Part shown: one piece after another, positions 1 through 55,380 of the stretch
How the letters are laid out: every line of letters begins with the position of its first letter
Position numbering within the stretch: the first letter of the stretch is position 1
Assembly: GCF_036365525.1 (NCBI RefSeq)
Contig: NC_090371.1
Coordinates: forward strand, 41,865,200 to 41,929,199
Direction: 5' to 3'
From: Heterodontus francisci
Taxonomy: Eukaryota
Length of the DNA: 64,000 bases
Notes under the pieces: generated by a model
What the model saw: the letters and a program-made list of their open reading frames with translations, nothing else
Database searches by the model: none
What the model was told of the DNA's origin: nothing
Program-made: the position numbers and the translations under genes

Positions 1-475
1 CTATCAATCTCAGTTTTATATTTAACAATTGATTCAGCATTAATTGCTGTTTGCAGAAGAGAGTTCCCAACTTCTTCCATCCTTTGTGTGCAGGAGTGTT
101 TCCTAAATTCACTCCTTGAAAGGCCTGGCTTTTTAATTTTTAGATTATGCCCCCTAGTTCTAGACTCCCCAATTAGTAGAAATAGCTTCTCTCTATCTAC
201 TCCGCTTAGTGTCTTGAAACTTCTATTTACATCACCTCTTAATTTTCTAAATTCTGGAGATTACAACCCTAGTTTGTGTAATCACTCCTCATAACTTAAT
301 CCTTGGAGTCTACCTATCATTCAGGTAAATCTACGCTGCACTCCATCAAAGACTAATAAATCCTTCCCAAGGTGTGGTGCCCAGAACTGCTCGCTGTACT
401 CCAGGTTTGGTCTAACCAGAGCTTTTTAATATCTGAAGCATGACTTCTACCCCATTGTATTTTAACCCTCTAGAT

Positions 476-1099
476 CGGTATAGAATACAAGAGCAGGGAG
501 GTTATGCTGGAACAGTATAACTCATTGGTTAGGCCACAACTTGAGTACTGTGAGCAGGAGTGGTCACCTCATTACAGAAAGGATATAATTGCACTAGAGA
601 GGGTGCAGAGGAGATTTACGAAGATGTTGCCAGGACTGGTAAAATGCAGCTCCGAGGAAAGATTGGATAGGCTGGGGTTGTTCTCCTTGGAACAGAGAAG
701 ATTGAGGGGACAGCTAATTGAAATGTACAAAATTTTGAGGGGCCTGGATAGAGTGGAAGTGAAGGGTCTATTCACCTTAGCAGAGAGGTCAGTGACGAGG
801 AGGCATAGATTTAAAGTGATTGGTAGAAAAATTAGAGGGGAGATGAGGAAAAACTTTTTCACCCAGAGGGTGGTGATAGTCTGGAATTCACTGCCTGAAA
901 GGCTAGTTGAGGCACAGACACTCAACTCATTCAAAAGGAGTTTGGATATGCACCTCAAATGTTGTAAACTGCAGGGCTACGGACCAAATGCTGGACGGTG
1001 GAATTGGAATAGGTGGATCTTTTTCAGCCTGCACAGATACAAGGGGCCAAGTGGCCACTTTCTGTGCCTTAAACTTTCTATGATCTAAACTTTCTATGA
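476..1099 (+). mobile_element. 5'-truncated CR1 LINE (3' end of ORF2 plus tail)
   Basis: ORF 504-1088 has LVRPQLEYC..WSPHYRKDIIALERVQRRFT and FFTQRVV..WNSLP. The tail has AAACTTTCTATGATCT twice. Flanked by TCTAGAT at 469-475 and 1100-1106. Confidence 0.92.
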
Positions 1100-1259
1100 T
1101 CTAGATACAACGACCAGCATTCCACTAACCTTTCTGATTTTTTTCCATACTTATTTATGGCATTTTAATGATCAATGCACCAGGATCCCCAAGTGTCTCT
1201 GATCTCCACTGTTTCTAGCTTTTCACTATTTAGAAAGTACCCTGTTCTATCCTATTTAA

Positions 1260-1530
1260 TCTTAATGATTTTAATCACTCCACCATTGATGGTCATGTCT
1301 TCAGTTGCCTAGGCCCCAAGATCTGGAATTTCCTCCCTACACCTGACTCTCCACCTCACTTTCCTCCTTTAAAACACCCCTTAAAATCTACGTCTTTTAC
1401 CAAGCTTTTGGTCATCTGACCTAATATCTCCTTTTGTGGCTCAGTGTCATACTTTGTTTTATAATGCTCCTGCAAAGCACCTTGGGATGTTGCATTACAT
1501 TAAAGGCACTATATAAAACTTAAGTTGTTT
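1260..1530 (+). mobile_element. L2-type LINE 3' end
   Basis: GCCTAGGCCCCAAGATCTGGAATT...CCAAGCTTTTGG...AAGCACCTTGGGATG...TAAAGGCACTATATAAA, which matches the other L2-like 3' ends in the window (4700-4890, 43930-44130). Confidence 0.75.
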
Positions 1531-1635
1531 TTAGGTCTAAACTGAATGATCTCACATTTACCTACACTGAAATCCATTTGCCCGTTTTGCCTATTTGCGT
1601 AACCTCTTAATATCTCTTCATATCTCTATCCTCCA

Positions 1636-2483
1636 TTGGAGGATAGCAAAAATCTTCAGGAGGATATAGACAGACTTGTAAAATGGGCAGATATACGGCA
1701 GATGAAACTGAACACAATGATGTCTGAAGTGATGTATTTTGATAGGAAGAATGAGAAGAGGCAATATGAAATCAATGGTGCAATTTTCAAGGGGGTGCAG
1801 GAACACAGAGACCTGGGGTGTATGCACAAATCTTTGATAGTGTCAGGATAAGTTGAGAAGCCTGATGAAAAGCAGATGGGGGTCTTGACTTTATTAATAG
1901 AGAAATAGAGTACAAAAGCAAAGAATTTAAGTTAAACCTTTATAAAACAATGGTTAGGCCTCAACTGGAGCAGTGTTCATTTCTGGGCATCACACTTTAG
2001 GAAGGATGTCTGAAGCCTTGGAGAAGGCACAAAAAGATTTAAAAGAATACCAGGGATGAGGGACCTCAGTTATGTGAGCAGACTGGGGAAGCTGGGATAG
2101 TTCTAACAGCAGAAAGGGTTCACAGGAGATTTAATAGAGGTGTTCAAAATCATCAATTGTTTTCAATAAGGAGGAACTGTTAGGTGTCAGAAGGATCGGT
2201 AATCAGAAGACACAGAGTTAAGGTGACTGACAGAAGAACCAAAGGCAAACTTTTTTTTTAAAACAGAGACTTCTTGTAATCTGAAATACACTGTCTGAAA
2301 GGTGGTGAAAGCAGATTCAACAGTAACATTAAAGAGAGAATTGGATAAATACTTGAAGGGAAAACATTTATAAGACTATGGAGAAAGAGCAGGAGAGTGG
2401 AATTAATTGGACTATCAAAAAAAGCTGGCACAGGCACAATGGGCCGAATGGCCATCTTCTGTGCTGCAACATTTTATGATTCT
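1636..2483 (+). mobile_element. Decayed CR1 LINE 3' portion
   Basis: LQEDIDRLVKWA..QM..N...EVMYF in ORF 1636-1851; CR1 tail GGGCCGAATGGCC..TTCTGTGCTG..TTATGATTCTA. Confidence 0.85.
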
Positions 2484-2569
2484 AGACAAATGTCAAGTAC
2501 TTCATAGGAAGGTAAAATAGCTGAGCCATGTAGTCCAGGAATGGTATTGCAATAGCTATGGTAAAGCTG

Positions 2570-2680
2570 AGAGTCATGGATCTTGGTAGGCTTGACCTGC
2601 AACGTGTCCAACCAATGTAAAACAGCAATCAACAAAGCCAATAAGATGTTGAACTGTGTAAACAAAACAGTAGGAGCAAT
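2570..2680 (+). mobile_element. Very old CR1-like fragment
   Basis: Translates roughly as QCKTAINKANKMLNCV, similar to the CR1 ORF2 'A..KAN.MLG.I' motif. Confidence 0.45.
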
Positions 2681-3304
2681 ATGTTTACGCAGGATTGCTT
2701 TGATATGACGACAAGACTGAATAAGAGTGAGTTAGATACCTGTAGATATAATAATTGTGGGTCGGTTTGATAAAATGACACGACAATTCTTACACTTGTT
2801 AATGCATTCAATATCTCCAGTCTCCCCAGCATCAATTCAAATGCTTTTGTACAGATAGCAATAACAAGGTACAGCCTGAGGCAACTGTGGAGAGGAAACT
2901 AAATATCTCTTCTGTTCTACATCAATAAATTGGTTTTATTCCAGCTCAAGCCAAGACTGATAGCCCCTAGAAATGACCACTATTTGGTAATGTAATAATA
3001 CACAAATTTCCTTTTTCTTACTGTTTGCAGCAGCAGCCTCAGCAAACAGCGTGAGCTGGGTCACTTAAAGACAGAAGAGGGGGTGGGGGTGCTGCTGTTC
3101 ATTCAAGTACATACCCACCCGAGGAGGGTGTACATGCCAAGAGTCACTTTCTTGGCTCTATCTTAGGAGTAGTGCATCTGGGTTTGCAGCAGTGGCTGGC
3201 TTCCCTTGTGTCCAGGGGATTGACTGCGCACAGGTTTCCACAAGGGTGCCAGGACACCAGCCTTGGTGAATAGAAAGGGATACCACTCCATTCATGTCCA
3301 GCTC

Positions 3305-6019: not shown

Positions 6020-6374
6020 TTTAGTTTTAGTTTAGTTTAGAGATACAGCACTGAAACAGGCCCTTCAGCCCACCGAGTCTGTGCCGACCATCAACCACCT
6101 ATTCATACTAATCCTACACCAATTCCATATTCCTACCACATCCCCATCTGTCCCTATATTTCCCTACCACCTACCTATACCAGGGGCAATTTCTACTGGC
6201 CAATTTACCTATCAACCTGCAGGTCTTTGGCATGTGGGAGGAAACCGGAGCACCCGGAGGAAACCCACACAGACACAGGGAGAACTTGCAAACTCCACAC
6301 AGGCAGTACCCAGAATTGAACCCGAGTCGCTGGAGCTGTGAGGCTGCAGTGCTAACCACTGCGCCGCCCCTCCC
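6020..6374 (-). mobile_element. HE1-like tRNA-derived V-SINE
   Basis: Minus strand: A box GGCGCAGTGG, B box GGTTCAATTC, V-domain TGTGTGGAGTTTGCAAGTTCTCCC...GGGTGCTCCGGTTTCCTCCCACA, CR1-like tail ending in (CTAAA)n. Confidence 0.93.
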
Positions 6375-9300: not shown

Positions 9301-10704
9301 GGGGCCCCAGCTGTTAGAACCATAGAACAATTAAGGCACAGAAGGAGGTTACTCAGCCCATCGTGTCAATACTGGCTGGAAAAACTAGCCGCCCAATCTA
9401 AACCCATCTTCCAGCACCTGGTCCATAGCCTTGCAGGTTACAGCATTTCAGGTACATGTCCAGGTACCTTTTAAAAGAATTGAGGGTTTCTGCCACCACC
9501 ATTCCTGGCAGCGAATTCCAGACACCCACCATCCTCTGGGTGAAAACGTTTTTCCCTCATGTCCCCTCTAATCTTGTTACCAATCACCTTAAATCTGTGT
9601 CCCCTAGTAAGTGACCTCCCCTGCAGGTGAAACAGGTCTTTCCTATCCATTCTATCTAGGCCCCTCATAATTTTGGACACCTCAATTAAGTCATCACTCA
9701 GCCTCCTCAGTTCCAGGGAAAACAACCCTAGCCTATTCAATTTTTCCTCATATCTGCAACTTTCAAGCCCTGGCAACATTCTTTTAAATCTCCTCTGTAC
9801 TGTCTCCAGAGCAATTATGCCCTTTCTGTAATGTGGTGACCAGAACTGTACACAATACTCCAGCTGTGGCCTAACCTGCATTTTATACAGTTCCAGCATC
9901 ACATCCCTGCTTTTGTATTCTATACCTCGGCCAATAAAGGAAAGCATCCATATGGCATCTTCACCACTCTATCCACCTGTCCTGCCACCATCAGGGATCT
10001 GTGGACATGCACTCCAAGGTATCTCACTTCTACCCCTCTCAATATCCTCCCATTTATTGTGTATTTCCTCGCTTTATTTGTCCTCCCCAAATGCATTAAT
10101 TCACTTCTCTGGATCGAACTCCATTTGCTACTTTCCCGCCCACTCAACCAAACCATGGATATCATTCTGGAGTCTACAGCTATCCTCTTCACTATTAACT
10201 ACATGGCCAATTTTTATGTCATCAGCAAATTTCCCAATCATGCCTCCCACATTTAAGTCCAAATCATTAATATATACCACAAACAGCAAGGGACCCAACA
10301 CTGAGCCCTGTGGAACACCTCTGAAAACAGCTTTCCATTCGCAAAAACATCCATCAACTATTACCCTTTGTTTCCTGTCCCTGAGCCAATTCTGGATTAA
10401 ACCTCCCACATTTCCCTGTATCCCATGAGCTTTCATTTTAGTGACCAGTCTGTCATATGGGACCTGGTCAAATGCCTTACTAAAGTCCATGTAGACCACA
10501 TCCACTGCACTACTCTCATCAATCCTCCCTGTCACTTCCTCAAAAAAACTCAATCAAGTTAGTAAGACATGACCTTCCCTTAACAAATCCATGCTGACTA
10601 TCCCTGATTAATCCGTGCAGTTTATCCTGTCTCAGAATTGATTCTAACAACTTACCCACCAGTCAGACTGACTGGCCTATAATTATTTGGCCTATCCCAC
10701 ACAT

Positions 10705-13700
10705 TTTTTAAAAAAAAATTCATTCATGGGATGCAGGTGTCACTGGCCAGGCCCAGCATTTATTGCCCATCCCTAATTGCCCTTGAGAAGATGGTGGTGA
10801 GCTGCCTTCCTGAACCGCTGCAGTCCATTTGGGGTAGGTTGACCCACAGTGTTGTTAGGAAAGGAGTTCCAGGATTTTGACCCAGCGACAGTGAAGGAAC
10901 GGTGATATAGCACCAAGTCAGGATGGTGTGTGACTTGGAGGGGAACTGGCAGGTGGTGGTGTTCCCATGTATTTGCTGCTCGTCCTTCTAGTTGGTAGAG
11001 GTCGTGGGTTTGGAAGGTGCTGTCTAAGGACCCTTGGTGCATTGCTGCATTGCATCTTGTAGATGGTACACACTGCTGCCACTGTGCGTCAGTGGTGGAG
11101 GGAGTGAATGTTTGTACATGGGGTGCCAATCAAGCAGGCTTCTTTGTCCTGGATGGTGTCGAGCTTCTTGAGTGTTGTTGGAGCTGCACCCATCCAGGCA
11201 AGTGGAGAGTAGTCAATCACACTCCTGACTTGTGCTTTGTTGATGTTGGACAGGCTTTGGGGAGTCAGGAGGCGAGTTACTCGCCACAGGATTCCTAGCC
11301 TCTGACCTGCTCTTGTAGCCAGGGTATTTATATGGCTACTCCAGTTCAGTTTCTGGTCAATGGTAGCCCCTAGGATGTTGATAGTGGGGGATTCAGCGAT
11401 GGTAATGCCGTTGAAGTCAAGGGGAGATGGTTAGATTCTCTCTTGTTGGAGATGGTCATTGCCTGGCACTTGCATGGCGCGAAGGTTACTTGCCACTTAT
11501 CAGCCCAAGCCTGGATATTGTCCAGGTCTTGCTGCATTTCTACACGGACTGCTTCAGTATCTGAGGAGTCACGAATGGTGCTGAACATTATGCAATCATC
11601 AGTGAACATCCCCACTTCTGACCTTATGATTGAAGGAAGGTCATTGATGAAGCAGCTGAAGACGGTTGGGCCGAAGACACGACTCTGAGGAACTCCTGCA
11701 GTGATGTCCTAGAGCTCAGATGATTGACCTCCAACAACCACAACCATCTTCCTTTGCGCTAGGTATGACTCCAGCCAGCAGAGGGTTTTCCCCGATTCCC
11801 ATTGACCTCAGTTTTGCTAGGGCTCCTTGATGCCATACTCGGTCAAATGCTGCCTTGATGTTAAGGGCAGTCACTCTCACCTCACCTCTTGAGTTCAGCT
11901 CTTTTCTCCATGTTTGAACCAAGGCTGTAATGAAGTCAGGAGCTGAGTGGCCCTGGCGGAACCCAAACTGAGCGTCACTGAGCACCTTATTGCTAAGCAA
12001 ACGCCACTTGATGGCACTGTTGATGACACCTTCCATCACTTTACTGATGATTGAGAGTAGGCTGATGGGGCGGTAATTGGCCGGGTCGGACTTGTCCTGC
12101 TTTTTGTGTACAGGATATACCTGGGCAAATTTCCACATTGCAGGATAGATGCCAGTGTTGTAGCTGTACTGGAACAGCTTGGCTAGGGGTGCAGCAAGCT
12201 CTGGAGCACAGGTCTTCAGTACTATTGCCGGAATATCGTCAGGACCCATAGCTTTTGCAGTATCCAGTGCCTTCAGTCGTTTGTTGATATCATGTGGAGT
12301 GAATCGAATTGGCTGAAGTCTGACATCTGTGATGCTGGGGACTTCAGGAGGAGGCTAAGATGGATCATCAACTCGGCACTTCTGGCTGAAGAATGCTGCA
12401 AATGCTTCAGCCTTTTCTTTCGCACTGATGTGCTGGGCTCCCCCATCTTTGAGGATGGGGATATTTGTGGAGCCACCTCCTCCAGTTAGTTGTTTAATTG
12501 TCTACCACCATTCACGGCTGGACGTGGCAAGACTGCACAGCTTAGATCTGATCAGTTGGTTGTGGGATCACTCAGCTCTGTCTATTGCATGCTGCTTATG
12601 CAGTTTGGCATGCAAGTAGTCCTGGGTTGTAGCTTCACCAGGTTGACACCTCATTTTGAGGTATGCCTGGTGCTGCTCCTGGCATGCCCTCCTGCACTCT
12701 TCATTGAACCAGGGTTGGTCTCCTGGCTTGATGATAATGGTAGAGTGGGGGATATGCCAGGTCATGAGGTTACAGATTGTAGTTGAGTACAATTCTGCTG
12801 CTGCTGATGGCCCACAGCGTCTCATGGATGCCCAGTTTTTCATTGCTAGATCTGTTCGAAATCTATCCCATTTAGCACGGTGATAGTGCCACACAACACG
12901 ATGGACGATATCCTCAATGTGAAGGCGGGACTTCGTCTCCACAAGGACTGTGCGGTGGTCACTCCTACCAATACATTCATGGACAGAAACACCTGCGGTA
13001 GGCAGATTAGTGATGACGAGGTCAAGTATGTTTTTTCCCTCGTGTTGGTTCCCCCACCACCTGCCGCAGACGCAGTCTGGCAGCTATGTTCTTTAGGACT
13101 CGGCCAGCTCGGTCAGTAGTGGTGCTGTTCAACATGGAGGAGTACTGAGTCATCAGCTGAGGGAGGGCAGTAGGTGGTAATCAGTAGGAGGTTACCTTGC
13201 CCATGTTTGACCTGATGCCATGAGACTTCATGGGGTCCAGAGTCAATGTTGAGGACTCGCAGGGCAACTCCCTCCCTACTGTATACCACTGTGCCACCAC
13301 CTCTGGTGGGTCTGTCCTGCCGGTGGGACAGGACATACCCGGGGATGGTGATGGCAGTGTCTGGGACATTGGCTGTAAGGTATGATTTCGTGAGTATGGC
13401 TATGTCAGGCTGTTGCTTGACTAGTCTGTGGGACAGCTCTCCCAACTTTGGCACAAGCCCCCACATGTTAGTAAGGAGGACTTTGCAGGGTCAACATGGC
13501 TGGGTTTGCTGTTGTTGTTTCCGATGCCTAGGTCTATGCCGGGCGGTCTGTCTGGTTTCATTTCTTTTTATTGACTTCTTAGCGGTTCAGTACAACTGAG
13601 TGGCTTGTTAGGCCATTTCAGAGGGCATGTAAGAGTTAACCACATTGCTGTAGGTCTGGAGGCGCACGTAGGCCAGACCAGGTAAGGACAGCAGATTTCC

Positions 13701-13903
13701 TTCCCTAAAGGACATTTGTGAACCAGATGGGTTTTTACAACAATCGACAATGGTTTCATGGCTATCATTAGACTAGCTTTTAATTCCAGATTTATTACAT
13801 TCAAATTCCACCTTCTGCTGTGGTGGGATGCGAACCCATGTCCCTTGAGAAATGCCCTGGGTCTCTAGGTTACTAGTCCAGTGATACCAACACGCCATCG
13901 CCT
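10705..13903 (-). mobile_element. Apparently full-length, single-ORF CR1-clade LINE (APE+RT, no ORF1) with a tRNA-derived 5' head; this copy is inactivated
   Basis: APE: KVLLTNMWGL, PDIAILTKS, RQDRPTRGGG (13113-13490). RT: GPDDIP, NYRPISLLSIISKVME, QFGFR, IKAAFDRVWH, GVPQ, MFTDD. Stop at 10773. 5' end has A box TGGCGTGTTGG (13897-13887) and B box GGTTCGCATCC (13836-13826). Imperfect flanking duplication GCCTATCCCACACAT / GCCTACCCCGACAT. Confidence 0.88.
13826..13897 (-). promoter_or_regulatory. Internal type-2 RNA polymerase III promoter (A and B boxes) in the tRNA-like head
   Basis: The three heads (13903, 14003, 43224) give a consensus near TGGCGTAGTGG...CTGGACTAGTAATCCAG...GGGTTCRAATCCCACC, with an anticodon-like stem-loop and a long variable arm. 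Confidence 0.8.
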
Positions 13904-14002
13904 ACCCCGACATCCTTTTGAAAACAATGGTACAACGTCCGCAGACCTCCAATCATCTGGTACCTCCCCTGTATCTAGTGATGATTTGAAGATGATCCTC
14001 AG

Positions 14003-14108
14003 AGGTGGTGGCATAGTGGTAATGTCACTTGACTAGTAATCCAGAGTCCAGATTAATACTCTGGTGACATGGGTTCAAAATCCACCACTGCAGATGAAAT
14101 TTAAATTT
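14003..14108 (+). mobile_element. Isolated tRNA-like head of the same LINE/SINE family, fused to an HE1 SINE
   Basis: GGTGGTGGCATAGTGGTAATGTCACTTGACTAGTAATCCAGAG...GACATGGGTTCAAAATCCACCACTGCAG is homologous to 13903-13800 and 43224-43135. Confidence 0.8.
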
Positions 14109-14432
14109 GGGTGGCACAGTGGTTAGCACTGCTAGCCTCACAGCTCCAGTGACCCAGGTTCAGTTCTGGGTACTGCCTGTGCGGAGTTTGCAAGTTCTCC
14201 CAGTGACCGTGTGGGTTTCTGCCAGGTGCTCTGGTTTCCTCCCACAGCCAAAGACTTGCAGGTTGATAGGTAAATTGGCCATTATAAATTGCCCCTAGTG
14301 TAGGTCGGTGGTAGGAGAATGGTGGGGACGTGGTGGAGAATATGGGATTAATGTGAGATTAGTATAAATGGGTGGTTGTTGGTCGGCACAGACTTGGTGG
14401 GCTGAAGGGCCTATTTCAGTGCTGTATGACTG
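14109..14432 (+). mobile_element. HE1-like V-SINE
   Basis: GGTGGCACAGTGGTTAGCAC head, V-domain, and tail GGGCTGAAGGGCCTATTTCAGTGCTGTATGAC. Confidence 0.92.
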
Positions 14433-16748: not shown

Positions 16749-17079
16749 ACCAGGCAGCACAGTTGTTAGCACCGCAGCCTCACAGCTCCAGCAACCCGGG
16801 TTCAGTTCTGGGCATTGCCTGTGCGGAGTTTGTAAGTTCTCCCTGTGACCGCGTGGGTTTCCACTGGGTGCTCTGGTTTCCTCCCACAGCCAAAGACTTG
16901 CCGGTTGATAGGTAAATTGGCCATTGTAAATTGCCCCTAGTGTAGGTAGATGGTAGGAGAATTGAGGAAAGGTGGGGATGTGGTAGGGAATATGGGATGA
17001 ATGTAGGATTAGTATAAATGGCCGGCATGGACTCAGTGGACCTCAGGGCCTGTTTCAGTGCTGTATCTCTCTATGACTA
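16749..17079 (+). mobile_element. HE1-like V-SINE inserted in CR1 ORF2
   Basis: Head, V-domain and tail as in the other copies. TGTA duplication at 16745-16748 and 17080-17083; the host reading LGL|YSL is restored on removal. Confidence 0.92.
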
Positions 17080-28644: not shown

Positions 28645-28960
28645 ATAGTGGCACAGTGGTTAGCACCACAGCTCCAACAACCCAGGTTCGATTCTGGGTA
28701 CTGCCCGTGTGGAGTTTGCAAGCATTCCCTGTGACCGCGTGGGTTTCCGCTGGGTGCTCCGGTTTCTTCCCACAGCCAAAGACTTGCAGGTTGATAGGGA
28801 AATTGCCCCTATTATAGGTAGGTGGTAGAGGAATTGAGGGAAGGTGGGGACGTGGTAGGAATATGGGATTAATGTAAGATTAGTATAAATGGGTGGTTGA
28901 TGGTCAGCACAGACTCGGTGGGCCAAAGGGCCTGTTTCAGTGCTGTATCTCTAAATAAAT
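28645..28960 (+). mobile_element. HE1-like V-SINE
   Basis: GTGGCACAGTGGTTAGCAC, GGTTCGATTC, V-domain, and tail CTGTATCTCTAAATAAA. Confidence 0.92.
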
Positions 28961-42148: not shown

Positions 42149-42830
42149 ATCAGTGTTGGGACCCTAGCTTTTCCCGATATATTAATGACCTAGACCTTGG
42201 TGTACAGGGCACAATTTCAAAGTTGACAGATGATACAAAAAACTTGGAACCATTGTGCACTGGGGAGGATAGTGTAGAACTTCAAAAGGACAGACAGGTT
42301 GGTGGAATGGGCAGACAGTTGGCAGATGAATTTCAATGCAGAGAAATGTGAAGTGATGCATTTTGGTAGGATGAAAAGAGAGACAATATAGAATAAAGGG
42401 TACAATTCTAAAGGGGGTGTAGGAGCAGAGGGGCCTAGGTGTATATGTGCACCTGAAGGTGGCAGGACAGGTTTAGTCATTAATAAAGCAAACAGTATCT
42501 TGGACTTCATTAATAGGGGCAAAGAGGACAACAAGGAAGTTATGTTGAACTTGTATAAGGCACTAGTTCAGCCTCAGCTGGGAGTACTGCGTCCAGTTCT
42601 GGGCGCCACACTGTAGGAAAGACGTGAGGGCATTGGAGAGAGTACAGAAAAGATTCAAGAGAGGGATGAGGAATTTCAGTTATGAAGATAGATTGGAGAA
42701 GTTAGGACTGTTTTCCTTGAAAAGACGGCGAGCTAATTTGATAGAGGTGTTGAAAATCATGAGGGGTCTGGACAGAGTAGATAGAAACTGTTTCCACTCG
42801 TGAAAAGGATCGAAAATGAGACGAGACAAA

Positions 42831-43224
42831 TTTTTAAAAAAAATTCATTAATGGGATGTGGGCATCGCTGGCCAGGCCAACTTTTATTGCCCTTGAGAAG
42901 GTGGCAGTGAGCTGCCAACTGAGTGGCTTGCTAGGCCATTTCAGAGGGCATATAAGAGTCAACCACATTGCTGTGGGTCTGGAGTCACATGTAGGCCAGA
43001 CCAGGTAAGGACAGCAGATTTCCTTCCCTAAAGGACATTAGGGAACCAGATGGGTTTTTACAACAATCAACAATGGTTTCATGGCCATCATTAGAATAGC
43101 TTTTTTTTTTTAAATCCCAGATTTACTAATTGAATTCAAATTCCACCTTCTGCTGTGGTGGGATTTGAACCCATGTCCCCAGAGCAATACCCTGGGTCCA
43201 GTGATAATACCACTACGCCACCGC
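42831..43224 (-). mobile_element. tRNA-headed SINE made of the 5' (about 310 nt) and 3' (about 85 nt) ends of the 10705-13903 LINE
   Basis: 43224-42917 aligns to 13903-13594 and 42916-42843 aligns to 10806-10719. A box TGGCGTAGTGG, B box GGTTCAAATCC. Confidence 0.92.
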
Positions 43225-49840: not shown

Positions 49841-52800
49841 TTTTTTTTAATTTGTTCATGGGATGAGTGTGTCACTGGCTGGGCCAGCATTTATTGCCCA
49901 TCCCTAATTGCCCTTGGTGAGCTGCCTTCTTGAACTACTACAGTCCATGTGGGGTAGGTACACCCACAGTGCCGTTAGGAAGGGAGTTCCAGGATTGTGA
50001 CCCAGCAACAGTGAAGAAATGGTGATAGTTCCAAATCAGGATGGTGTGGGGCTTGGAGGGTAACTTGCAGGTAGTGGTGTTCCTATGCCTCTGCTGCCCT
50101 TGTACATCTAGGTGGCAGACGTCACGGGTTTGGAAGGTGCTGTCTAAAGAGCCTTGGTACGTTGCTGCAGTGCATCTTGTAGATGGTACACACTGCTGCC
50201 ACTGCGCGTCAGTGGAGGAGAGTGTGAATTTATGTGGATGGGGTGCTAATAGGAACATACGAAGATAGGAACAGGAGTAGGCCATTCAACCCCTCGAGCC
50301 TGTCCCGCAGCCCAACTCCATATACCTGCCTTTGGCCCATACCCCTGAATATCTTTGCTTAACAATAACCTAAGACTTAAAATTAACAACCGTTCTAGCT
50401 TCAACTGCTGTTTGTGGGAGAGAGTTCCAAATCTCTACCACCCTTTGCGAGAAGTGCTTCCTAACATCTCTCCTGAACGGTCTGGTCTTAATTTTTAGAC
50501 ACTGCCCCCTAGTTTTAGAATCTCCAAGCAGTGGAAATAGCTTATCTTCATCTAGCCTGTCTTTTCCTGTTAATATCTTGAAGACTTCGATCAGATCACC
50601 CATTAACCTTCTAAATTCTAGCGAAAACAAGCCTAATTTGTTTAATGTCTCCTCGTAACTTAACCCCTGTAGTCCAGGTATCATTCTTGTAAACCTACAT
50701 TGCACTCCCTCCAAGGCCAAACTATCCTTCCTAAGGTGTGGTGCCCAGAACTGCTCACAGTACTCTAATTGGGGTCTAACCAGGGTTTTGTACAGCTGCA
50801 GCATAACCTCTGTCTTTATACTCCAATCCTTTAGATATAAAGGCTAGCATTCCATTAGCCTTTTTGATTATTTTCTGCACTTGCTCGCAGCATTTTAAAG
50901 ATCTATGCACCTGAACCCCCAAGTCTCTTTGGACATCCACTATACTTAACCTCTTCCCATTTAGAAAGTACCCTACTCTATCCTTTTTTGGTCCAAAATG
51001 GATAATCTCACACTTGCCCGCATTGAAATCCATCCGCCACAGTTTTGCCCACTCACCTAGTCTGTCAATATCTCTTTGCAATTTTATGCTATTATCTAGA
51101 ATGTCTACAATGCCGCCTAACTTTGTATCAGCAAATTTGGATATATGACTTACTAGGCCATCATCCAAGTCGTTAATGAATAATGTGAATAATTGAGGCC
51201 CCAACACAGATCCCTGTGGGACACCACTAGTCACATTCTGCCAATTGGAATACTTAGCCATTATCCCCACTCTGTCACCTACCACTCAACCAACTTCCTT
51301 ACCATGTCAATAATTTGCCCTCAACTCCATGGGCTTCGACCTTAATTAACAGTCTCTTGTGTGGGACTTTATCAAATGCCTTCTGGAAGTCCATATAATT
51401 AACATCCATAGAATTCCCCTGTCCACTACCTTAGTCACCTCATTAAATTTTTTTGAAGAGATTTGTCAGACATGACCTTCCAGTTCCAATCCATGCTGGC
51501 TGTCCCTGATCAATTGAAATTTTTCTAAGTGTTCAGTCACCCTATCCTCGATTATAGATTCCAGCAACTTGTCCACCACAAATGTTAGTCGAACTGGTCT
51601 GTAATTTCCTTGGTTCCCCCCTTCACCCTTAAAAAGCAGAATGACATGTGCAACTTTCCAATCCAGAGGGACCACTCCTGAATCTAGGGAACTCTGAAAG
51701 ACTATAGTTAAGGCATCTACAATGTGCTCCCCTACTTCCTTTAACACCCTCGGATGGAAACCATCAGGTCCTGGAGATTTCTCACTCTTTAGTTCCATTA
51801 ATTTCCTTATGACTGATGTTTTACTTAGCTTAATTATATTAAGTCCCTGTCCCCCATCAGCTATAATTTTTTCAGGACTTCCGGCAAGTTATCCTCCTTT
51901 TCAACTGTATATACTGAAGAAAAGTAATTGTTCAATATGTCTGCCATTTCCCCATTATCAACGACAATATTTCCAGTTTCAGCTTTTAGTGGGCCTACAT
52001 TGCTCTTGGCCACCCGCTTTCCCCTTATGCAACTATAAAATTTCTTCTTATTGATTTTGATGTCCCTTGCAAGTTTCCTTTCATAATCTCTTAGTAGCTC
52101 TTATAATCTGCTTTGACACCCTTTGCTGGTCTTTGTATCGATCCCATTCAGCTGGATCTGTGCTGCGCTTTGCATTTTTCTGAGCCCTTTCTTGTTGTTT
52201 TATGCTATCCCTAATCTCTTTAGTTGTCCAAGGCTGTTTGTGAAGTGGAGCTTTTTCCTCTCTGGTATATACTCGCTCTGTATTTCGTTAAATGTTTCTT
52301 TAAATATTCTCCACTGTGCTTCAGTCGTTTGACCCATTAACAGATCTACCCAGATACCGTGGACAGTCTGTCTTATCCAGTAAAGTCAGCCTTACCAAAG
52401 TCCAAAATTCTAGTAGCTGATTCCTGCTTTTCACTTTCAAACGCTACCTTGAATTCAATCATGTTGTGATCACTATTTGATAAATGTTCACGAACAGTTA
52501 GGCTACTAATTAAATTTGGCTCATTACTCATAACTAAATCTAATATTGCCTGTCCCCTTGTTACATCTAGGACATATTGCTGTAGGAAACTATCCCGGAC
52601 ACATTCCAGAAATTCACCACCTTTCTGACAGGTGCTAGTCTGCCTCTCCCAGTGGGTAAGTTAAAATCCCCCATTAATACTACTCTGCCTTGGTTACACA
52701 CTTGCCTAATTTGTGCATTTAACACCTCAGAACTGCTACCGGGGGTCTATACACAACACCTATTACAGTTTTAGATCCTTTTCTGTTCCTCAATTCCACC

Positions 52801-55015
52801 CATAAGGTCTCCACTGGATGCTTTCCCCTCATTATATCCTCCCTCACCAATGAGGTGATATTATTTCTAATCAGTAAGGCTACTCCACCCCCTCTGCCAT
52901 TTTCCCTGTCCCTCCTGTAAACTTTATAACCGGGTATATTTAGTTCCCACTCCCGACCGTCCTGCAGCCATGTCTCTGCAATGGCCACATCATAATCTTC
53001 CATTTGAATTTGCACCTGCAGCTCATCTAGTTTATTCCTTACACTCAGTGCATCTGCATATAGAACACTTATTTGGGCTATACACTCTAACCTGTCCCTC
53101 AGCACTGATGCTTTATTCACTGCTTATCAGTTCTCTCTTCTGGTTTAACCAGTATACTTCTTGCAGTTTGATAACTATCAGCCTCACCACTAACCTGCAT
53201 TCTTACCTTCTCCTTTAGCTTCCTGTTTTTCCATGCAACTGAACCCCGCCCCCCACTATTTAGTTTAAAGCCCAATCTACAGCCCTAGTTATGCAATTCG
53301 CCAGGACTCTGGTCCCAGCAGGATTCAGGTGGAGCCCGTCCCGTCGGAACAGCTCCCTCCTTCCCCAGTACTGGTGCCAATGTCCCACGAATTCAAGCCC
53401 ACTTCTCCCACACCAATCTTTGAGCCATGCATTTACCTCTAATCTTATTGACCCTTTTCCAATTTGCTCGTGGCTCAGGTAGTAATCCGGAGATTACCAC
53501 CTTTTTGGTTCTGCTTTTTATTTTAGCCCCTAGCTGCTCATATTCCCTCAGCAGAACCTCTAACCTCGTTCTACCTATATAGTTGGTACCTACGTGGACC
53601 ACGGCAACTGGATCTTTCCCCTTCCTGGACTCCAAGTTCCTCTGCAGCCCAGATGAGATATCCCGAACCCTGGCACCAGGTAGGTATGAGAGCCTTCGGG
53701 ACTCTCGATCCTGGCCACAGAGAACAGTGTCTATGCCCTTAACTATACTATCCCCGATTACGACTACATCTCTTTTCTCCCCCCACTTGAATGGCTCCCT
53801 GTACCACGGTGCTGTCGTCAGTTTGCTCATCCTCCCTACAGTCCCTGCTCTCGTCCACACACAGAGCAAGAACCTTGAACCTGTCTGACAAGGACAATGG
53901 CTGAGGCTCCTGCAGCACTACCTCAGAGATCCCTCTACCTGCCTCAGTCACACTCTCCTGTCCCTGAGCACTGGCCGAATTCACAGCAGTTAATCTAAGG
54001 GGTGTGACTGCCTCCTGAAACACAGCATCCAGTTAACTCTCCCCTCCCTGATGTGTTGCTGTGTCCGAAGCTCAGACTCCAGCTCATCAACTCTGAGCCA
54101 GAGTTCCTCGAACAGCCAACACTTGCTACAGAGGTATTCACCAGGAACCACGATGGGGTCCACCAGCTCCCACATCATGCAGGTACAACACATCACCTGG
54201 CCCTGCAGCTCTACTTTATATAATTAGATTTTAAATTTGTTATTTAAATTTCCGAATGTTTTTTTTTTAAAAAACCACTTTAGTCTATATACTTATAAAT
54301 CAATCAAGTCTTACTCTATGTTGATTAAATTACCTGAATACTGACCCCAGCTGCATTCTGTTTCCCTACTCTCACTGTTCAATGTGATGGGCTGCTTTGT
54401 TCTGGATAGCGTCGAGCTTAGAGTGTTGTTGGAGCTGCACCCATCCAGGCCAGTGGAGACGATTCCATCACATTCCTGACTTATGCCTTGTAGATGGTGG
54501 ACAGGCTTTGGGGAGTCAGGTGGTGAGTTACTCGCCACAGGATTCCTAGCCTCTGACCTGCTCTTGTAACCACAGTATTTATATGGCTGGTCCAGTTCAG
54601 TTCAGTTTCTGGTTAATGGCAAGCCCCAGGATGTTGATAGTGGGGGATTCAGCAATCACAATGCCATTGAATGCCAAGGAGAGATGGTTAGATTCTCTCG
54701 TTGGAGATGGTCATTGCCTGGCACTTGCGTGGCGTGAATGTTACTTGCCACTTATCAGCCCAAGCCTGGATATTGTCCAGGTCTTGCTGCATTTCTACAC
54801 AGACTGCTTCAGTATGAGAAGTTACGAATGGTGAATATTGTGCAATCAGCAGCGAACATCCCCACTTCTGACCTTATGATTGAAGGAAGGTCATTGATGA
54901 AGCAGCTGAAGATGGTTGGGCCTAGGACACTACCCTGAGGAACTCCTGCAGTGATGTCCTGGAGCGGAGATGCTTGACCTCCAACAACCACAACCATCTT
55001 CCTTTGTGCTAGGTG
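49841..55015 (-). mobile_element. Second, 5'-truncated copy of the tRNA-headed LINE family (own sequence 49841-50249 and about 54388-55015), split by a full-length CR1
   Basis: 49850-50249 aligns to 10719-11130 and 54388-55015 aligns to 11135-11770 (GVPQGSVLGPTIFSCFINDLPSIIRSEVGMFAADC). Confidence 0.9.
50250..54385 (-). mobile_element. Essentially full-length decayed CR1 LINE: 5' UTR, ORF1 (zinc finger/leucine zipper plus SGNH esterase), ORF2 (APE+RT)
   Basis: CCTCMMW...CSKC..(L-x6)n at 53990-54196; GDSIVKG, PGARV.D, HVGTN, ISGLLP at 53393-53869; IAETWL, GGGVALLI, VYRPP at 52719-53120; RT at 50370-51798. Confidence 0.93.
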
Positions 55016-55380
55016 AGACTACATTGTGGCGTATCAACAAAATCACAAGTAATTTTTTAGTTGAAAATACTTAAACAAAATTCCCTTGTATGGGTATGTC
55101 TCAAATTCTAATTTTAAACCTCACCACAAATTTGACAGGGAAGAATATTGTGAAGAGGGCAACTGATTTTGGTATTTTTATTTCACTGCTTACAAACAAA
55201 TCAAGTAAGCTTGAATGTCAGTGCTATTCTGTCGGAGAATGCCGGCACAGATATGATTGGCCAAGTGGCCTCTTTCTGTGCCATAAACATTTTTTGATTC
55301 TATTAACCAAAGCTCTGCTTTTCAATTTGTAATGGTGAAGGCACCTTATAACTGAAGCTGGATCAGTGCTAGGTTGGTCT

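Follow-up and report, generated by a model that had tools for sequence, protein, structure and literature searches.

We analysed a 64,000-nt stretch of the 6.0-Gb genome of Heterodontus francisci (contig NC_090371.1, positions 41,865,200 to 41,929,199; hereafter the window), in which a 3.2-kb retrotransposon lies at 10704–13907. It is a single decayed full-length copy from the young subfamily of a family that joins a tRNA-like head, as in short interspersed nuclear elements (SINEs), to the open reading frame (ORF) of a long interspersed nuclear element (LINE). The positions of the element, of its host CR1 and of the related copies in the window are given on the minus strand. The head (13815–13907) has a long variable arm and contains an A box (13887–13897), mutated in this copy, and a B box (13826–13836), in which a conserved A is replaced by C. 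The rest of the 5′ module is a conserved body (13593–13814) that has several upstream AUGs and recurs in SINE derivatives. At 13608–13616, AUG-GCC-stop stands in the same frame as the ORF and is followed by CAA, the stop being TAA in the window copy. A basic N-terminal stretch with weak coding constraint (13485–13607) then leads in frame, without an AUG, to the endonuclease motif. The AP (apurinic/apyrimidinic) endonuclease domain (12950–13484) and the reverse transcriptase (RT) core (RVT_1, 11454–12099, split by a frameshift near 11793) belong to one endonuclease-RT frame (10773–13607), which in the family runs for about 945 codons past the stop. The 3′ untranslated region (UTR; 10719–10772), with AATAAA at 10764–10759, is again common to the SINE derivatives and ends in a T9-A6 tail (10704–10718) that holds the only run of four or more T in the window copy.

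The element is embedded in a CR1 LINE, the reading frame of which breaks off in the upstream flank (13908–14001, ...VVPLFSKGC) and picks up again in the downstream flank (9480–10703, ...DRPNNYRPVSL), in agreement with an earlier note, made from the window sequence, that took the whole 3.2 kb for one insertion. The imperfect flanking duplication described in the same note was not borne out, as the words shared by the two ends were no better than those of mismatched pairs. The positions it had read from the window were accurate. Both boxes were where it had placed them and both carry private mutations, the endonuclease motif, put at about 300 nt past the head, starts at 13484 (about 330 nt past it), and the stop and the 3′ UTR, put at 10773 and about 55 nt, were measured at 10775–10773 and 54 nt. 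The copy is also dead, as had been said: relative to a natural sister copy the frame is disrupted by four frameshifts (near 13032, 11793, 11415 and 10979), as well as by stops, and a deletion of about 84 nt in the endonuclease domain near 13122 (placed near 13120 in the note) is private, since all 29 of 29 other loci have extra sequence there. Overall, 134 of 3192 sites (4.2%) depart from the commonest letter of their alignment column. At a second site the nesting is reversed, with a full CR1 (50250–54390) inside a 5′-truncated family copy (49849–55023, in two pieces at 54390–55023 and 49849–50250); as the nesting runs both ways round, CR1 and the head-ORF family overlapped in time.

We then asked whether the union of head and ORF is peculiar to this locus. 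A 611-nt junction query over the head and the endonuclease returned 8488 candidates, and all of the best 40, which were scored, spanned the junction, 39 of them being loci other than the window copy itself with 91–93% identity. Of 29 non-self loci fetched from this search, 27 started at the same GGG with unrelated flanks and two were slightly truncated. Because the query itself selects for the head, a second search was made with the endonuclease DNA alone, which gave 29 non-self loci, two in common with the first set. Eighteen of these started at the tRNA-like head, the other 11 were truncated within the same 5′ sequence, and none of the 29 had another 5′ UTR or an ORF1, the alternatives for which the earlier note had proposed to look. 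Sixteen of 20 extended loci ran to the 3′ end and were mostly 3.2–3.3 kb long, so the family consists of dispersed copies with a fixed 3′ end and variable 5′ truncation, as expected of a LINE. A diverged query revealed an older subfamily with copies about 78% alike, in which head or body was joined to the ORF in 30 of 30 fetched loci. For comparisons between subfamilies we used 56 young copies (59 before removal of three duplicate loci) and 26 old copies (without L191 and three copies of intermediate age), with ORFs 3.1% and 10.7% away from their own commonest letters, respectively. That a SINE had landed by chance next to a truncated LINE at the window locus might be suggested by the great abundance of SINEs with the same head; this account is refuted by the identical junction in 39 of 39 other matches and in the older subfamily, and we give it a negligible probability. 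The head-ORF fusion is a fixed trait of the family. The expectation that full-length copies all start at the head within one target site duplication (TSD) held for the fixed start and failed for the TSD, which was not regular.

Fragments of the ORF were also found at 72–87% identity in proteins of the sharks Heptranchias perlo, H. francisci and Cetorhinus maximus; judged from the ORF, the family is therefore spread across sharks. Some annotated shark genes (an aldo-keto reductase, CWC25 and a MyoD-inhibitor domain protein; P0071, P0126, P0128 and P0166) include pieces of the ORF among their exons, which are likely to be gene-model artefacts or cases of exonisation. Four of the 11 truncated copies (L052, L054, L060 and L077) begin within 15 nt of each other directly past the 5′ module (window equivalents 13548–13562), where an out-of-frame AUG is found in the young subfamily only; an RT pause or a second start site could lie there.

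In natural copies the AP endonuclease and then the RT were read in one frame, with Pfam matches to Exo_endo_phos and RVT_1 above cut-off and L1 ORF2p as the best match in PDB. The longest open frame in any single natural copy had 993 codons. Between the two subfamilies, 930 codons showed 88 silent and 60 replacement differences, a ratio of replacement to silent rates (dN/dS) of 0.19 with multi-hit codons roughly apportioned, and by this pattern of substitution the ORF has evolved under purifying selection in both. Its RT was 33–40% identical to many single-ORF proteins of 920–1050 aa on 3–4-kb contigs. Identity to the CR1 elements of the same genome was 32–35%, at a tree distance of 2.4 versus 1.3 for the nearest relatives. 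In the control CR1 at 50250–54390 an esterase-like frame lies upstream (Pfam Lipase_GDSL_2, E 0.0023, under the curated cut-off). The earlier contrast with CR1 over a missing ORF1 stands in that the element has no room for one, but a single ORF is usual among its relatives and is not specific to this family. With no room for ORF1 and an RT that stands apart, the element is not CR1 proper. We presume an affinity of the RT group to CR1-Zenon by resemblance, the nearest matches being unnamed or crustacean. LINEs of a CR1-Zenon-like kind have been reported in the whale shark (bioRxiv 443036). A tRNA head was found in none of the 76 upstream regions of relatives, many of which are short, and T runs were at normal levels in the relatives. 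No relative was found among viral contigs, and a comparison with an atlas gave generic RT clusters only.

The family sequences of the two boxes are TGGCGTAGTGG (A box) and GGTTCGAATCC (B box), and the window copy deviates from both. ARAGORN made no tRNA call on the window copy's own head; among 20 sister copies it recognised the head as a tRNA in 8, with a long variable arm. Compared with the Ser, Thr and Lys tRNAs of the genome, three of the four heads tested aligned best with tRNA-Ser(AGA), and the element starts 2–3 nt ahead of the first base of the tRNA. Of the A boxes, 32 of 45 in the young and 7 of 12 in the old subfamily fitted TRGCNNARYGG, which we take to be the consensus, and the core of the B box fitted in 45 of 48 young and 16 of 26 old copies. 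Between subfamilies none of the 12 fixed box positions had changed, versus 17 of the 74 other head positions. The body past the head was better kept than silent sites (15 of 217 columns differed between subfamilies, versus 15% at synonymous sites), and the 5′ module of a single copy had a good predicted fold (z −3.0). In these predictions element positions 10–40, the A-box arm, pair with 146–179 of the body, and many of the subfamily differences preserve pairs as wobbles. Rfam gave a weak tmRNA T-arm match below cut-off on four sister copies and nothing meaningful on the window copy. A tRNA-like fold at the very 5′ end, with copies starting just ahead of the mature tRNA end, would also suit a processing signal that lets RNase P excise the element from read-through transcripts of the host, for which the release of R2, RTE and Ingi elements by hepatitis delta virus-like ribozymes offers a precedent (PMC5786205). 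We regard this as very improbable, since the acceptor stem of the head pairs poorly, in the folds predicted for the module as a whole the A-box arm is taken up by pairing with the body, and processing would leave the depletion of T runs described below unexplained.

TTTT and TVTTT are the shortest terminators that work for RNA polymerase III (Pol III) (PMC8466645). Among 17 copies none had T5 on the coding strand; eight had no T4 and nine had one or two, mostly in differing places, and no T4 site was common to half of the copies among either the 56 young or the 26 old ones over about 3250 columns. The shared triplet sites in the young and old subfamilies numbered 8 and 5 for TTT, compared with 44 and 45 for AAA, 47 and 35 for CCC, and 41 and 32 for GGG. 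When synonymous codons were permuted on a natural 779-codon stretch with protein and codon usage fixed, we observed four TTT runs versus 12.3 expected (p<0.001), one 5-mer with at least four T versus 11.6 (p=0.001) and no TTTT versus 2.3 (p=0.067), while A runs matched expectation. The natural 993-codon copy was likewise depleted, with no TVTTT versus 3.3 expected (p=0.022), as were six further natural frames. The ratios of observed to expected counts, 0.32 for TTT runs and 0.09 for T-rich 5-mers, compare with minima of 0.77 and 0.63 among 127 related ORFs, taken from 160 metagenome and metagenome-assembled genome (MAG) loci after those of less than 550 codons were left out. Not one of the 127 was free of TTTT, and the genome's own CR1 copies were near expectation. 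Judged from these counts, the coding strand shows a strand-specific lack of Pol III terminators. Low Phe content was considered as a sign of T avoidance and rejected, near relatives being equally low.

These data also bear on whether the element is an ordinary LINE transcribed by RNA polymerase II (Pol II), with the SINE module as an internal Pol II promoter or a structured 5′ UTR and with U-poverty selected for other ends, such as avoidance of splice acceptors or of U-rich decay elements. A length of 3.3 kb is long for Pol III. In addition, LINEs are established as Pol II units (PMC5786205), and the AATAAA, the A tail and a TATTT in the young head would fit. We nevertheless find such an ordinary LINE improbable: T runs are not depleted in the host CR1 or in the 127 relatives, all of which are presumed to be transcribed by Pol II, and the unchanged box positions between subfamilies speak against it.

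The two ends of the element recur without the ORF. The window SINE at 42826–43222 consists of element positions 1–322 joined to 3202 and onward, and the same joint was common to 24 of 25 loci, mostly with the letters of the young subfamily (a mis-anchored locus, L272, was excluded from the SINE tallies). A second joint (321 to 3222) was found in DNA- and RNA-labelled contigs with 3602 exact 25-nt matches, and 12 sampled copies of it ranged from old-like through young-like. A third joint was found in one locus (L224). Three joints indicate that deletions recur, each keeping about 320 nt of the 5′ end, and as thousands of mobile SINEs consist of these 320 nt and the 3′ end, the combined 5′ and 3′ module suffices for transcription. 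Only these derivatives of about 400 nt fit the definition of a SINE2 as short and non-coding, from which the full element is excluded by its 3.3 kb and its ORF. The two-ended SINE family, the lack of T runs and the absence of an in-frame AUG all go beyond the earlier note. Of 29 3′ ends, eight had four or more T ahead of the A tail and most had one or two, with AATAAA nearby. Tails ranged from T1 to T9 ahead of the A run, longer T runs going with shorter A runs (L037–L288; in the window, 10704–10718 and about 42830–42845), and they resemble the terminator elongation of T+ SINEs. The predicted fold of the 3′ UTR had no support (z 0.64).

Taken together, the boxes, the terminator-poor strand and the SINEs argue that the full-length template RNA was probably made by Pol III. 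Whether that RNA was translated as well we judge to be evenly balanced, and we give even chances to the overall reading, in which the window element is a defunct member of an abundant 3.3-kb LINE family of sharks that was once autonomous and whose Pol III RNA would be both messenger and template. In its strict form, an autonomous retrotransposon whose 3.3-kb coding RNA was made by Pol III and translated with neither a cap nor an in-frame AUG, the proposal falls a little short of even chances.

Labour may instead have been divided: Pol III would make the template, and the protein, translated from capped Pol II transcripts that read through a copy (in introns or UTRs of the host, for example), would act in trans. 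No uncapped translation would then be needed to explain the boxes, the scarcity of T runs and the SINEs. The abundant SINE derivatives fit action in trans, and element sequence is plentiful in contigs of RNA-labelled sequencing runs (the labels are mostly guessed), heaviest in the 3′ part; the run contigs cover all 30 bins of the element, and among those listed no piece bridged head and ORF. We consider this division somewhat unlikely. That the ORF stayed under purifying selection in the lineage that moves is most easily explained if the copied RNA encodes its own copying protein, and a capped RNA would likewise meet the upstream AUGs and the in-frame stop.

A stop at element position 305 is followed by 41 codons to the endonuclease motif, and the first in-frame AUG comes at codon 285. 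The M of TNMWG is private to the window copy (Ile in 48 of 56 copies), hence no start codon lies there. An AUG two codons ahead of the stop, in frame and with a purine at −3 and G at +4, is conserved (48 of 52 young copies, 23 of 26 old ones). The stop was TAG in 42 of 52 and 21 of 26, and the next codon CAA in 50 of 52 and 26 of 26. UAG-CAA is a leaky stop context. Among relatives, 64 of 74 had a Met among the first 60 codons of the frame, and several had a similar basic N-terminal stretch.

Under the reading of a Pol III RNA that serves as messenger and template, the following sequence of events may be envisaged. The element would have originated in a template switch that linked the tRNA-Ser-like head of a SINE with its partner LINE, after which SINEs and LINE may have exchanged or re-derived ends. 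TFIIIC would bind the A and B boxes, and Pol III would probably start at the 5′ GGG and read through 3.3 kb because, as we propose, selection had removed terminators. The RNA would end in the tail or where a T run follows in the flank, and might be polyadenylated via AAUAAA as in T+ SINEs, the last being a weak point. Uncapped, it would be translated by a non-standard route, for which we tentatively suggest ribosome entry on the structured body, the conserved AUG as start codon and a UAG-CAA leaky enough to be read through; this would yield little of the protein of about 950 aa, and re-initiation at a non-AUG codon could take the place of read-through. The protein would then bind the 3′ end and insert a copy by target-primed reverse transcription, with no need of ORF1. 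Pol III RNAs have been reported to retrotranspose without ORF1 (PMC2666806), and Pol III to be able to make translation-competent RNA (PMC8223928).

Several results weigh against this reading. At least six further conserved AUGs lie upstream of the proposed start, which makes scanning a poor route for an RNA of any polymerase. In the N-terminal stretch replacement changes outnumber silent ones, and the conserved stop could reflect RNA structure and not read-through. The boxes are modestly conserved (0 of 12 positions changed, against a background rate of 23%, p ∼0.04, with the A box covered by 12 old copies only), and covariation in the 5′ module is weak (6 of 69 pairs). The lack of TTTT alone is marginal (p 0.05–0.07 by codon permutation), zero TTTT also being reached in 3–17 of 100 dinucleotide shuffles, and the signal is therefore carried by TTT and the T-rich 5-mers. 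TATTT(CT), a moderate type of terminator, occurs at element positions 57–61 in 36 of 47 young copies; the old subfamily lacks it and the window copy has it altered. Copies that belong to a single family are non-independent samples, and head and T depletion may predate sharks, the DNA comparison having been limited to relatives other than the 13 closest by protein. The best word shared near both ends was 3–7 nt in 15 full-length copies, compared with a mean of 4.5 nt in mismatched pairs. Among elements of the CR1/L2 type, TSDs are commonly short or missing.

Among the closest known systems are single-ORF CR1-group LINEs of the Zenon type with their internally deleted partner Persaeus, which share a single endonuclease-RT ORF, a short 3′ UTR, an A tail and a non-autonomous partner built of 5′ and 3′ ends (PMC6740152). 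According to that source, Persaeus and the 5′ end of Zenon have no tRNA homology and no Pol III promoter, unlike the family described here. The tRNA head, the two boxes and an AATAAA near the 3′ end are as in SINE2 elements, especially the T+ SINEs B2, Dip and Ves (PMC8466645), as is the lack of a shared internal terminator save for the young-subfamily TATTT; a length of 3.3 kb and an endonuclease-RT under purifying selection are not. RTE-1_DAn and related elements are LINEs that hold a tRNA-like sequence and thus match SINE2, but they belong to the RTE clade in Drosophila (PMC5786205). SacSINE1 (Deu domain, L2-type tail; PMC5499810) and HE1/HER1 (V-SINE; PMC3747384) are likewise tRNA-headed shark SINEs with a LINE-derived tail. 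They share only the tail with a LINE, whereas the family here shares both ends. Identity with SacSINE1/Deu was rejected, as three Deu motifs from the published alignment were absent in 107 of 107 5′ modules (a motif test, not a full alignment), and no match to UCON3 was seen by eye. We did not find such a Pol III-type LINE described in the literature; Repbase, Dfam and most subscription journals were outside this search, so a catalogue entry may exist.

The division between LINEs and SINEs rests on the polymerase, Pol II for coding LINEs and Pol III for non-coding SINEs, and a natural Pol III unit encoding an enzyme of 950 residues would, if confirmed, break this rule. Translation of a Pol III RNA, for which most cases to date come from reporters (PMC8223928), would thereby gain a natural example, and the element would be of a wholly new category should its messenger turn out to be the Pol III RNA. 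The strict form of the proposal would further imply counter-selection of terminators along the entire coding strand over long shark evolution and, in effect, an autonomous SINE that spawns SINEs by loss of its ORF. The conserved SINE body may here be the translation element of the LINE. The reading length of Pol III, ribosome recruitment to uncapped RNA, the dispensability of ORF1 and the role of SINE bodies all become testable in a single element. The derivatives also show how deletion from a LINE gives rise to SINEs that are complete, with the head included.

Other repeats were recorded in passing. On the plus strand of the window, 14002–14106 is a related tRNA-like head with 71% identity to that of the element, called as tRNA-Thr(agt) by ARAGORN and probably an older SINE or a truncated copy of the same module. 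Another SINE of about 330 nt is present at 14109–14427, 16753–17070, 6031–6369 and 28648–28959, with copies 79–86% alike, and we take it to resemble the shark V-SINE HE1. Many prokaryote MAGs hold eukaryotic LINE contigs (L293–L372), which are host contamination. Finally, a tandem array of more than 50 units with a tRNA-Ser motif and a period of about 2.15 kb was found at 12.64–12.76 Mb of G000:C34.

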